Of a stretch of DNA of 5,993 nucleotides, positions 4,959 to 5,784 are shown piece by piece. The DNA comes from a virus (taxonomy: Duplodnaviria > Heunggongvirae > Uroviricota > Caudoviricetes): the IMG/VR virus record IMGVR_UViG_2778261058_000003. One strand, given 5' to 3'. The notes under the pieces are model-generated. The model did not search any database, was not told the DNA's origin, and saw only the letters and a program-made list of their open reading frames with translations. Position 1 is the stretch's first letter. Each line of letters starts with the position of its first letter. Both the position numbers and the translations under genes were made by a program.

Positions 4959-4978
4959 AATCTAAGTATTTTTAGATT
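4959..4978. promoter_or_regulatory. Putative operator OR-a: AATCTAA-gtattt-TTAGATT
   Basis: Perfect 7-bp inverted half-sites with a 6-bp spacer. Overlaps the proposed -10 of the cro-directed promoter. Confidence 0.5.
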
Positions 4979-5005
4979 ACAGGATAATTTTTTTTAGGTC
5001 AATGC

Positions 5006-5025
5006 AATCTAAAATAATTTATATT
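5006..5025. promoter_or_regulatory. Putative operator OR-b: AATCTAA-aataat-TTATATT
   Basis: Same left half-site as OR-a, right half-site with one mismatch, same 6-bp spacer. Lies 17 bp upstream of the repressor ATG and overlaps a TATATT -10-like hexamer. Confidence 0.4.
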
Positions 5026-5041
5026 CAACTCGCGGGAGAAA

Positions 5042-5689
5042 ATGATGGAAAGCCTTGGCATCAGGCTTAAGAAACTCAGAAAAGATAAGGGACTCACCCA
5101 AGTAGAACTGGGTAAGCTTTCAGGCGTGACTGGGGTTACTATAGGGTACTGGGAGAAAGATCTAAACGAACCCGGCAGCAAAGCTCTAAGTAAGTTAGCT
5201 CAAGCATTAGGAACTACTGAGTCCTATCTCCTGTATGGAGTATCGTCTCCTGAACTATCTTTTGTGCAGAGCAATCCAGGCACCAAGATCCCCTACTTTT
5301 CGTGGGGTGACGCGATTTCTTTCCTAATCTTAGAAGGAGAGAAAACAATGGGAAATGTCGATAGGATCACCACATTCTTTGATGTAGTGGAAGGTGATTT
5401 TGCCGTTTCAATGCCTGATGACACTATGCATAACCCCTCAGGGTCGCCGAGTATCCCGGTTGGTGCCACTGTGATCCTAAGACCAGGAGAAAGTTATAAA
5501 AATGGCAGTATTGTCGCTGTAATAGTTCCAGATCCACTTACAAATGAACCGTCTATGACTATAAAAAAATTAGTTATTGATGGAAAACTTGTGTATTTAA
5601 GCCCTCTCAATCCGCGCTATCAATCATCCTTGCTTACGCCAGAGTGTAAAATTGTTGCCGTAGCAAAAGGTGTACAGTTCAACCTATAA
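5042..5689 (+). CDS. CI-like prophage repressor: N-terminal XRE-type HTH plus C-terminal S24 (LexA-like) peptidase domain
   Basis: 215-aa ORF. HTH segment LTQVELGKLSGVTGVTIGYWEK. C-terminal domain has a catalytic-Ser motif (AVSMPDD) and a Lys (TIKKLV) about 50 aa later, as in LexA/cI. GGGAGAAA sits upstream of the ATG. Confidence 0.85.
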   Translation: MMESLGIRLKKLRKDKGLTQVELGKLSGVTGVTIGYWEKDLNEPGSKALSKLAQALGTTESYLLYGVSSPELSFVQSNPGTKIPYFSWGDAISFLILEGEKTMGNVDRITTFFDVVEGDFAVSMPDDTMHNPSGSPSIPVGATVILRPGESYKNGSIVAVIVPDPLTNEPSMTIKKLVIDGKLVYLSPLNPRYQSSLLTPECKIVAVAKGVQFNL

Positions 5690-5710
5690 CACTGCCATGT
5701 CCTTGAACTT

Positions 5711-5737
5711 AAGGTCGGTTATACCGACCTTTTTTTA
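5711..5737 (+). terminator. Rho-independent terminator downstream of the repressor gene
   Basis: Perfect 8-bp stem aaggtcgg (5711..5718) and ccgacctt (5724..5731), 5-nt loop, followed by a T-run through 5736. Confidence 0.7.
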
Positions 5738-5754
5738 AATTAATTTAGATTTCC

Positions 5755-5784
5755 CTTGACTATAAAACTAAATACTTTTAGATT
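5755..5784 (+). promoter_or_regulatory. PL-like promoter with overlapping operator OL (AAACTAA-atactt-TTAGATT, 5765..5784)
   Basis: TTGACT at 5755..5760, then TAGATT at 5779..5784 after an 18-nt spacer. The 20-bp site at 5765..5784 matches OR-a in 6 of 7 left-half and 7 of 7 right-half positions with the same spacer length. Confidence 0.45.

Follow-up and report, generated by a model that had tools for sequence, protein, structure and literature searches.

The palindromic repeats on either side of the repressor gene in this prophage are, with a probability of roughly 0.85, the operators to which its CI-like repressor binds, and by analogy Cro as well, arranged as a triplet at OR and as a pair at OL. 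The window, i.e. the whole stretch of 5,993 nt that was analysed, is the immunity region of a lambdoid prophage of Escherichia coli that is like Sp14. The three palindromes described in an earlier note on this DNA, together with a fourth site, are very probably the repressor operators of this dormant lambda-like element. The same note had proposed the layout of a CI-type immunity switch, with operators at OR and at a PL-like promoter, and comparison with other loci strongly supports the core of this reading. What emerges is a probable CI-Cro switch of the lambda/P22 type with a new recognition sequence, a real but ordinary case that follows lambda and P22 in its design and changes no concept.

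Genes and sites of the immunity region

The features of the region are as follows; the candidate operators carry no strand.

4718..4945, minus strand: cro gene, 75 aa, P22_Cro family
4959..4978: OR1, AATCTAAGTATTTTTAGATT, perfect palindrome and strongest site
4974..5002, minus strand: PR-like promoter of cro, -35 TTGACC (5002..4997), 17-bp spacer, -10 TAATCT (4979..4974)
4981..5000: OR2, weak and inferred, AGGATAATTTTTTTTAGGTC, one mismatch in the 8-base core
5006..5025: OR3, AATCTAAAATAATTTATATT, 1 mismatch, 13.4 bits
5020..5025, plus strand: PRM-like -10, TATATT, 5/6 to consensus
5042..5689, plus strand: CI-like repressor gene, 215 aa from 5042 (elsewhere annotated as 214 aa from 5045)
5711..5737, plus strand: intrinsic terminator of the repressor gene, 9-bp stem (hairpin 5711-5731) and T run, from a terminator scan
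5732..5751: OL2, TTTTTAAATTAATTTAGATT, 3 mismatches to the 20-mer and 1 to the core, 14.5 bits
5756..5784, plus strand: PL-like promoter, TTGACT, 17-bp spacer, TAGATT, 9/12 in a consensus scan
5765..5784: OL1, AAACTAAATACTTTTAGATT, 1 mismatch, 19.1 bits

The repressor and cro genes are divergent, with 96 bp between them. The repressor combines an HTH_3 with a Peptidase_S24 domain, and P22 C2 is the closest match to its N-terminal domain among solved structures; for Cro, the nearest solved structure is N15 Cro. E. coli genomes encode repressor proteins of 100% identity, as do two phage records, for which we found no paper. Likewise, the literature that was searched yielded no data on binding, footprints or transcripts in this type of immunity, and searches of full texts for the site sequences or for work on the Sp14 repressor returned nothing on these operators. 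At its far end (5921-5993) the window matches the leader and start of ydfA, and relatives run on into ydfB, ydfC and dicB. No N gene is visible downstream of PL in the window, and an Rfam scan of its whole length gave nothing above noise.

The three 20-bp sites of the earlier note, here OR1, OR3 and OL1, stand in the sequence exactly as it had given them, and their common architecture, AATCTAA-N6-TTAGATT, proved to be far above chance in a motif search of the window. Allowing up to 3 mismatches, AATCTAANNNNNNTTAGATT has 4 matches against 0.28 expected (sd 0.51), a count reached in none of 200 dinucleotide shuffles, and the match beyond those already described is the OL2 site at 5732-5751. The 8-base core CTAA-N6-TTAG, with up to 1 mismatch, is found 6 times (1.64 expected; no shuffle reaches 6), and five of these matches lie inside the two intergenic regions, among them the central OR core at 4984-4997. 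The core match at 1603-1616, with 5.5 bits at 1599-1620, does not rise above what the null gives and was not taken as an operator. Extended 13-nt arms at OR1 (4953-4965 and 4972-4984) are unconserved in relatives and were treated as chance. Here and in relatives, the sites take the consensus form A(A/T)CTAA(G/A)-N4-(C/T)TTAG(A/T)T, which spans 18-20 bp and is of the P22 type. The centres of the CTAA and TTAG cores are 10 bp apart, a distance that fits a dimer placing its two helix-turn-helix motifs in successive major grooves, one in each.

Probable operators and promoters at OR

In the cro promoter, OR1 spans the -10 and the region of the start; it also adjoins the cro ribosome-binding site, and its CTAA...TTAG core is unchanged in relatives of 84-99% identity. 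That the first site overlaps the -10 of the cro-directed promoter, as previously proposed, is borne out by a TAATCT on the minus strand, 17 bp from TTGACC, from which transcription would start near 4967. This promoter is missing from the list of the consensus scan because its -10 matches at just 3/6 positions.

On the other side, the right half-site of OR3 also serves as the -10 of PRM. In agreement with what had been said of the second site, it contains TATATT, and its end is 17 bp short of the repressor ATG at 5042. A 16-nt gap with GGAG precedes the repressor gene. PRM lacks a good -35 and by implication depends on an activator. OR3 is invariant among E. coli relatives; CTAAaataatTTAT is also present in the closest of the diverged relatives, L048 and L049, both of which have TATATT or TATACT at the position of the PRM -10.

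The earlier note had read OR as a pair of sites spaced 47 bp apart rather than as lambda's triplet. This description needs correction. A distance of 47 bp is precisely that between OR1 and OR3 in lambda (24+23 bp; in P22, 48 bp, from 23+25), and a degenerate third site lies between the two at 4981-5000, with counterparts at the same offsets in L048 and L049. The centre of this candidate OR2 is 22 and 25 bp from those of its neighbours and ~41.5 bp upstream of where PRM is predicted to start (near 5032), while its right end overlaps the PR -35. The central site is followed by GGTCAA or GATCAA in most of 32 loci.

Probable operators and promoter at OL

Within the PL-like promoter, whose start is predicted near 5791, OL1 occupies the spacer and the -10. 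The third site had been described as overlapping the -10 of a TTGACT promoter downstream of the repressor terminator, and it does contain the TAGATT of TTGACT-17-TAGATT, just past the terminator hairpin and T run. Among E. coli relatives, the half-sites of OL1 are fixed (the left half is invariant) and the spacer varies (ATACTT, ATAGAT, ATATTC). While this site itself stands, the view that it is the only one at the promoter does not, given the second site at 5732-5751. OL2 lies 33 bp upstream of OL1, beyond the PL -35, with its left half within the T run that ends the repressor terminator. Relatives too have a site 33-36 bp upstream of OL1, as do P22 (at ~35 bp) and dicBp of Qin (at 34 bp), and in relatives TTGAC stands between the two OL sites. 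OL2 is degraded or weaker in several E. coli relatives, and a matrix scan gave no third OL site in the window. As for the PL leader, we rejected a put-like element of the HK022 kind, as its sequence resembles neither the HK022 nor the P22 regions; the long form present in the window folds no better than its shuffles (z = +1.48).

Comparison across loci and alternative readings

A set of 27 distant loci from other genera, with repressors of 39-50% identity and intergenic DNA that is not alignable, was searched for all 4-mer gapped palindromes. CTAA-N6-TTAG ranked first upstream of the repressor gene, with 50 occurrences in 3,240 nt as compared to 5 in 110,524 nt of background (~346-fold). Upstream, sites with the exact core cluster at distances of ~79, 55 and 30 bp from the repressor start; those downstream flank TTGAC. 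A matrix built solely from 54 unique distant sites returns the four strong sites of the window as its top four matches, at 23.8 (OR1, no mismatch to the 20-mer), 19.1, 14.5 and 13.4 bits, against a 99th percentile of 11.9 bits for the null maximum. Both intergenic regions are AT-rich, and an AT-matched null has its 99th percentile at 13.9, close to the 13.4 bits of OR3. Homologues of cro diverge from the repressor gene in 20/27 distant loci, and six of the seven loci without one keep both OR1 and OR3. The sites are co-inherited with the repressor clade and track its recognition helix: we found no CTAA-N6-TTAG core upstream of more distant repressor homologues, whose recognition helix is different, nor in the OR regions of P22, lambda or Qin.

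These comparisons bear on what, if anything, binds the repeats. Promoter regions rich in A and T and with similar -10 hexamers (TAGATT, TAATCT, TATATT) might resemble one another by chance, with no protein involved, and every strong site does hold a -10-like hexamer in one half. Since promoter-proximal half-sites double as -10 hexamers, some of their conservation may indeed be promoter-driven. Promoter function, however, leaves the symmetric partner half-site unexplained, no shuffle reaches the observed counts, and the same palindrome recurs at the same offsets beside repressor homologues in 27 otherwise unalignable loci while being absent from the more distant homologues and from the three known OR regions, so that this reading is highly improbable and already close to refuted. 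It is just as hard to credit that another regulator, be it a host nucleoid protein or the YdaT protein encoded in the cII position, rather than the CI-like repressor, occupies the sites. In CP-933P, the target of YdaT is an inverted repeat, again with a 6-bp gap (PMC9986795), and the YdaT of the window is nearly identical to solved YdaT structures (274 bits to 8BT1, from CP-933P). Yet the published YdaT site is TTGATT-N6-AATCAA, of which the window has its own one-mismatch copy elsewhere, at the cro/ydaT junction (4711-4728). Besides, none of the 27 distant CTAA-N6-TTAG loci has a homologue of this YdaT (tblastn, E up to 1e-3), and the motif follows the recognition helix of the repressor clade. 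We therefore rejected YdaT as the binder of the OR and OL sites.

A less remote, though still unlikely, alternative concerns OR alone, which might have only two functional operators, 47 bp apart, with promoter DNA between them and hence neither an OR2 nor pairwise cooperativity. The central site indeed scores just 2.6 bits with the distant-locus matrix and departs from the core at 2-3 positions in many relatives, its right half adjoins the conserved PR -35, a possible source of part of its conservation, and in 11/32 loci the best central core has at least 3 mismatches, three of these loci having been mis-assigned by the script (the automatic assignment of OR1, OR2 and OR3 mis-placed L049, L010 and L017, after which L049 was read by hand). 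Against this, a core as good as the one-mismatch core of OR2 has a chance of 0.009 of occurring at the exact offset, and at most 2 mismatches are present at the central offset in 21/32 loci, where 7% would be expected. The central core is perfect in the distant loci L012, L021 and L040 and also in L049, whose repressor is 68% identical and which has the same 22/25-bp offsets with a different spacer; L048 shares the very ATAA...TTAG of the window, again with offsets of 22 and 25 bp. Finally, both P22 and lambda, whose overall spacing is similar, have a central site.

Relation to known immunity regions

Among known systems, P22 is similar in many respects. Its C2 protein is ~32% identical to the repressor over the full proteins, and its operators OR1-3 (ATTAAAGAACACTTAAAT, ACTAAAGGAATCTTTAGT and ATTTAAGATGACTTAACT) have the operator form seen in the window. 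Their centres are spaced 23 and 25 bp apart (22 and 25 bp here), the PR -35 adjoins OR2 in both (TTGACT in P22, TTGACC in the window), and the annotated PR and PRM overlap as they do here. The OL order of P22, i.e. OL2, TTGACC and OL1, is also that of the window, with a first site ahead of the -35 and a second across the spacer and -10. Specificity is another matter: within the same architecture, the half-sites are CTAA(G/A) instead of the TT(A/T)AAG of imm P22, with C (CTAA) where P22 has T (TTAA), and the recognition helix reads TGVTIGYWEKD rather than the SNVAISQWERS of C2. As the P22 OR has no CTAA-N6-TTAG core, P22 and this prophage should be heteroimmune. Further differences are that three OL sites are annotated in P22 and two were found here, that OR3 of P22 adjoins the repressor ATG whereas the GGAG-containing gap intervenes in the window, and that the cII position is held by C1 in P22 and by YdaT here.

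Lambda likewise has cI and cro diverging around three operators, operators of the same family at PL, and the same centre distance between OR1 and OR3. Its OR2 lies ~42 bp upstream of the PRM start, close to the value for the window, and the C-terminal domain of its CI aligns with that of the repressor. In contrast, lambda sites are 17 bp long and unrelated in sequence, its OR1 sits between the -35 and -10 of PR and not over the -10 and start, and OR and OL are separated by ~2.4 kb, as opposed to ~0.8 kb in the window.

In the Qin prophage of K-12 (DicA/DicC), the operon after the left promoter is the same ydfA...dicB operon as in the window and in relatives. The dicB promoter has a corresponding layout of site, TTGACC and site, 34 bp apart, but the Qin sites (TGTTAG-N6-CTAACA) have their half-sites in the opposite orientation, and DicA is a short repressor that lacks the peptidase domain. 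The DicA operators were hence rejected as a match to the motif, the layout being the same and the sequence different. Also rejected were the operators of CP-933P of O157:H7, a lambdoid immunity region that likewise has a YdaT protein in the cII position. Its repressor/Cro operators are 18-bp palindromes, four in number and set at even intervals, with the consensus half GTTTAGTAA, and its repressor, PaaR2, heads a toxin-antitoxin operon (PMC8630535, PMC9986795); the half-site, the repressor, Cro and the specificity are others.

Proposed operation of the switch

For the switch we infer the following order of events. Repressor dimers would fill OR1 and then, cooperatively, OR2, the two being 22 bp (~2.1 turns) apart. 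Occupancy of both would turn PR off and probably stimulate PRM. At OL1 and OL2, which are 33 bp (~3.1 turns) apart, bound repressor would shut off PL, the promoter that leads into the ydfA/dicB-type operon. At high repressor levels, OR3 would be filled as well and PRM repressed. Cro would be expected to occupy the same sites with a reversed order of preference.

The window provides the probable sequence and arrangement of the operators in an uncharacterised group of immunity regions widespread in E. coli, its region being present in 474 of 5,426 complete genomes, including Sp14 of O157:H7 Sakai, and it places an operon of the dicB type, encoding a cell-division inhibitor, under the left promoter of this group. 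The motif can be used to predict homo- and hetero-immune prophages and to design reporters and EMSA probes, and it allows the same switch to be spotted in genomes of Yersinia, Proteus, Xenorhabdus, Enterobacter, the Klebsiella group and others.

Cleavage motifs of the repressor

An alignment with lambda CI, P22 C2 and LexA revealed departures from the self-cleaving LexA/CI-type signature, which relate to how the switch flips and not to the operators. DDTM replaces G-x-S-M, so that Thr stands in the place of the catalytic Ser of lambda CI, and DAISF replaces (V/A)AG, leaving no Gly, while the Lys in KKL is kept; P22 C2, in contrast, has both the Ala-Gly site and the catalytic Ser. Besides the Sp14-like prophages of E. 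coli, the clade in question takes in relatives from Salmonella, Yersinia, Symbiopectobacterium and Arsenophonus, and every one of them has Thr for the catalytic Ser and no Ala-Gly site. We regard it as conceivable, if on balance somewhat doubtful, that a repressor unable to cut itself (Ser to Thr, no Ala-Gly) is paired with a P22-type operator set throughout this clade. If so, dimerisation and cooperative DNA binding (at OR1-OR2 and at OL1-OL2) may be all that the S24 domain is still kept for, and the switch would be flipped by means other than RecA-stimulated autocleavage, e.g. by an antirepressor, by YdaT/Cro dosage or by another prophage.

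Operator candidates on both sides of the repressor gene

An earlier note had proposed three 20-bp operators of the architecture AATCTAA-N6-TTAGATT, and all three sequences are present exactly where it placed them, at 4959-4978, 5006-5025 and 5765-5784 (hereafter OR1, OR3 and OL1). A search of the 5,993 bp with this consensus, allowing up to three mismatches, returned four matches against 0.28 expected, a number reached by none of 200 dinucleotide-preserving shuffles; the fourth lies at 5732-5751 (OL2). With at most one mismatch allowed, the window has six copies of the core CTAA-N6-TTAG (1.64 expected); five fall within the two intergenic regions either side of the repressor gene, among them a copy at 4984-4997, between OR1 and OR3. 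The sole remaining match, AACACTAAATTTAATTATTCAG with one mismatch, is within the null range, scores 5.5 bits with the weight matrix described below and is probably due to chance.

Features of the region
1599-1620: AACACTAAATTTAATTATTCAG, in an AT-rich gap between genes ending at 1515 and 1613
4296-4721, minus strand: ydaT-type gene (YdaT family) in the cII position, next after cro
4718-4945, minus strand: cro gene (P22_Cro family), divergent from the repressor gene
4955..4952, minus strand: GGAG ahead of the cro ATG at 4945
5002..4997 and 4979..4974, minus strand: -35 (TTGACC) and -10 (TAATCT) of the PR-like promoter, 17-bp spacer
4981-5000: candidate OR2, AGGATAATTTTTTTTAGGTC, one core mismatch
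5020-5025: TATATT inside OR3, without a good -35
5042-5689, plus strand: CI-like repressor gene (HTH_3 and Peptidase_S24 domains)
5711-5731 plus T run: intrinsic terminator of the repressor gene
5756-5784, plus strand: PL-like promoter, TTGACT-17-TAGATT, downstream of the repressor gene
From 5963: ydfA-like gene, reached by the leader of the PL-like promoter

A replication gene comes after the YdaT gene, and in relatives and in Qin the ydfA operon goes on to ydfB, ydfC and dicB. Many E. coli chromosomes match the region at 98-99% identity, and prophage Sp14, inserted at serU in O157:H7 Sakai, matches it at 92%. Of 5426 complete E. coli genomes, 474 contain it, and two phage records carry a 100% identical repressor.

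Conservation of the motif in distant loci

The decisive evidence that the repeats are likely operators is comparative. Across E. coli relatives that are 84-99% identical, OR hardly changes, and OL1 keeps its left half-site while its six central bases vary (ATACTT, ATAGAT, ATATTC). For more distant relatives, a protein-guided scan with one genome per species yielded 38 loci, in 27 of which the repressor is 39-50% identical, with the recognition helix [ST][GD]V[TAS][IV]GYWEKD, and the intergenic DNA is not alignable with the window. An unbiased tally of every 4-mer inverted repeat with a gap of 0-10, taken over the 120 bp upstream of these 27 repressor genes, ranked CTAA-N6-TTAG far ahead of all others: it has 50 copies in 3,240 nt, compared with five in the remaining 110,524 nt of the loci. 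Second came TAAG-N4-CTTA, which forms the interior of that site. Exact-core sites in the distant loci group around 79, 55 and 30 bp before the start of the repressor gene, and those downstream of the gene flank a TTGAC hexamer.

A weight matrix built from 54 unique distant sites only was then scanned over the window. Its four best matches were OR1 (4958-4979, 23.8 bits), OL1 (5764-5785, 19.1 bits), OL2 (5731-5752, 14.5 bits) and OR3 (5005-5026, 13.4 bits), the next one reaching only 5.5 bits; in simulated windows, the 99th percentile of the best score was 11.9 bits.

The sites could in principle belong to the repressor, to Cro or to YdaT. A cro homologue diverges from the repressor gene in 20 of the 27 distant loci, yet six of the seven loci without one retain both OR1 and OR3, and tblastn found a homologue of the window's YdaT in none of the 27. 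The core is also absent upstream of more distant repressor homologues (30-35% identical), which have other recognition helices (SRVSVTKWESG, SRGTVSQWVNG), and was not found in the OR regions of P22, lambda and Qin. Being kept without cro and without a YdaT homologue, and missing beside other helices, the motif thus tracks this repressor clade, as its operators should. By analogy with lambda and P22, Cro would presumably use the same sites as the repressor. On the sequences compared, the case for a genuine operator set is good; the set follows the textbook plan, with an immunity specificity previously uncharacterised, and no description of CTAA-N6-TTAG operators was found in the searchable literature.

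Anatomy of OR and OL

On the minus strand, the order TTGACC-17-TAATCT-GGAG-ATG places OR1 over the -10 and start region of the cro promoter, in agreement with the earlier note. The TATATT within OR3 recurs, unchanged or as TATACT, in the two nearest of the diverged relatives. As to OR as a whole, the two outer sites proposed before hold, while the layout as a pair probably does not, since the candidate central site AGGATAATTTTTTTTAGGTC sits between them, with spacings of 22 bp (to OR1) and 25 bp (to OR3), its right end entering the PR -35. Taken alone, this site is weak (2.6 bits). However, the chance of at most one mismatch at the central offset is 0.009 under an AT-matched null, and 21 of 32 loci have at most two mismatches there against 7% expected. 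At the same offsets, a Salmonella locus (L048; repressor 66% identical) has ATAA-tctttt-TTAG and L049 (68% identical) a perfect CTAA-tttatt-TTAG; further perfect central cores occur in L012, L021 and L040, at 24 and 25 bp. The OR2 of lambda is likewise weak alone and is filled cooperatively. We put the probability that OR is a triplet of operators at roughly three in four to four in five. The 47 bp between the outer sites had been contrasted with lambda's triplet, but this is lambda's own OR1-OR3 distance (24+23 bp between annotated operators).

The promoter site at 5765-5784 likewise stands, although not as the single left operator: OL2 lies 33 bp upstream of it, on the opposite side of the -35. 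The second left site is spaced at 33-36 bp in relatives, ~35 bp in P22 and 34 bp at Qin dicBp; OL2 carries an additional core mismatch in several E. coli relatives.

Of note, there is a mosaic joint at ~5784-5802, where homology to E. coli phages of other immunity (Evi, Tritos, vB_EcoS-640R1 and others) starts within a few bases of the OL1 end and the -10. The promoter-operator is therefore part of the immunity module, and the transcript body part of a shared left-operon module.

Comparison with known systems and proposed mechanism

The closest known system is P22 immC. P22 C2 is the nearest solved structure to the N-terminal domain of the window's repressor, and the window's cro is P22-type as well. 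In P22, the operators ATTAAAGAACACTTAAAT, ACTAAAGGAATCTTTAGT and ATTTAAGATGACTTAACT align with window-type A(A/T)CTAA(G/A)-N4-(C/T)TTAG(A/T)T, and P22 has the same spacings and abutting -35, its OR1-OR3 distance being 48 bp (23+25) against 47 bp. In contrast, the window half-site has C where P22 has T, the recognition helices differ, there are two OL sites rather than three, a short leader precedes the repressor ATG, and YdaT replaces C1. The left operon and promoter layout are also those of Qin, yet the Qin sites are TGTTAG-N6-CTAACA; CP-933P shares the YdaT module, whereas its repressor and Cro proteins differ and its sites are built on GTTTAGTAA.

We infer the following mechanism. The two 4-bp cores, 10 bp apart centre to centre, would suit one HTH per dimer half in successive major grooves. 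The OR1-OR2 (22 bp, ~2.1 turns) and OL1-OL2 (33 bp, ~3.1 turns) pairs would each lie on one helix face and permit pairwise cooperativity, the phasing of OR2-OR3 (25 bp, ~2.4 turns) being less good. Repressor on OR1 and OR2 would occlude PR and, from a centre ~41.5 bp before the predicted start of PRM (near 5032), could also activate that promoter. Negative autoregulation would come from OR3, which would also be the likely first target of Cro, while OL1 and OL2 would turn off the ydfA/dicB-type operon.

Further observations

Both cleavage signatures of the repressor (5042-5689, plus strand) are altered, at residues ~88-92 and 126-129. It has DDTM where lambda CI, P22 C2 and LexA have G-x-S-M, replacing the catalytic Ser by Thr, and DAISF in place of their Ala-Gly, with the catalytic Lys (KKL) retained. 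Thr and the lack of Ala-Gly are common to the whole subclade (E. coli, Salmonella, Yersinia similis, Symbiopectobacterium, Arsenophonus, Phlomobacter), while a sister clade (208 aa) has canonical GDSM and QAG. These substitutions suggest that the repressor may be unable to self-cleave. For Sakai Sp14, mitomycin C was reported not to induce the prophage on its own (PMC2669165), but it has other defects too.

At the cro/ydaT junction, TTGATTTTCATGAATCAC (4711-4728) extends over both the stop of cro and the start of ydaT. It differs by one mismatch from the YdaT operator published for CP-933P, TTGATT-N6-AATCAA (PMC9986795), and occupies the equivalent position. Nearly identical to PDB 3C4R, the window's YdaT (4296-4721, minus strand) reaches 274 bits against 8BT1; by sequence, TTGATTTTCATGAATCAC is probably the primary YdaT operator.

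The leader of the PL transcript (~5785-5962) contains a core, AAGTAGCC-N6/7-GAGGCGTAWGAA, conserved across phages of different immunity. A short form (65 nt) occurs in other genera (L009, L022-L025, L033, L034) and a long form in the window, L010, L011 and L050. The short form folds as a closing stem with an inner hairpin, and 5 of the 16 base pairs show compensatory changes; folding of the window's long form gave no thermodynamic signal, being no better than that of shuffled sequences. A boxA-like CGCTCTTTAACA follows farther downstream in several loci, and at 5899-5910 the window reads CAACTTTAACTA. Rfam gave no match for the leader, which also shows no similarity to the HK022 and P22 regions; the element may act in antitermination or RNA processing. 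Besides, the 5' end of the predicted transcript carries a C-rich, G-poor tract, CCAACCCACCCCACCCCAC (5793-5817), by its composition a candidate Rho-utilisation site.

Finally, a 1.8-kb contig labelled MAG: Collinsella sp. (L008, JAIHTM010000357.1) encodes a repressor 100% identical to that of the window and also has its OL and leader sequence; the contig almost certainly comes from an E. coli prophage and was mis-binned into a Collinsella MAG.
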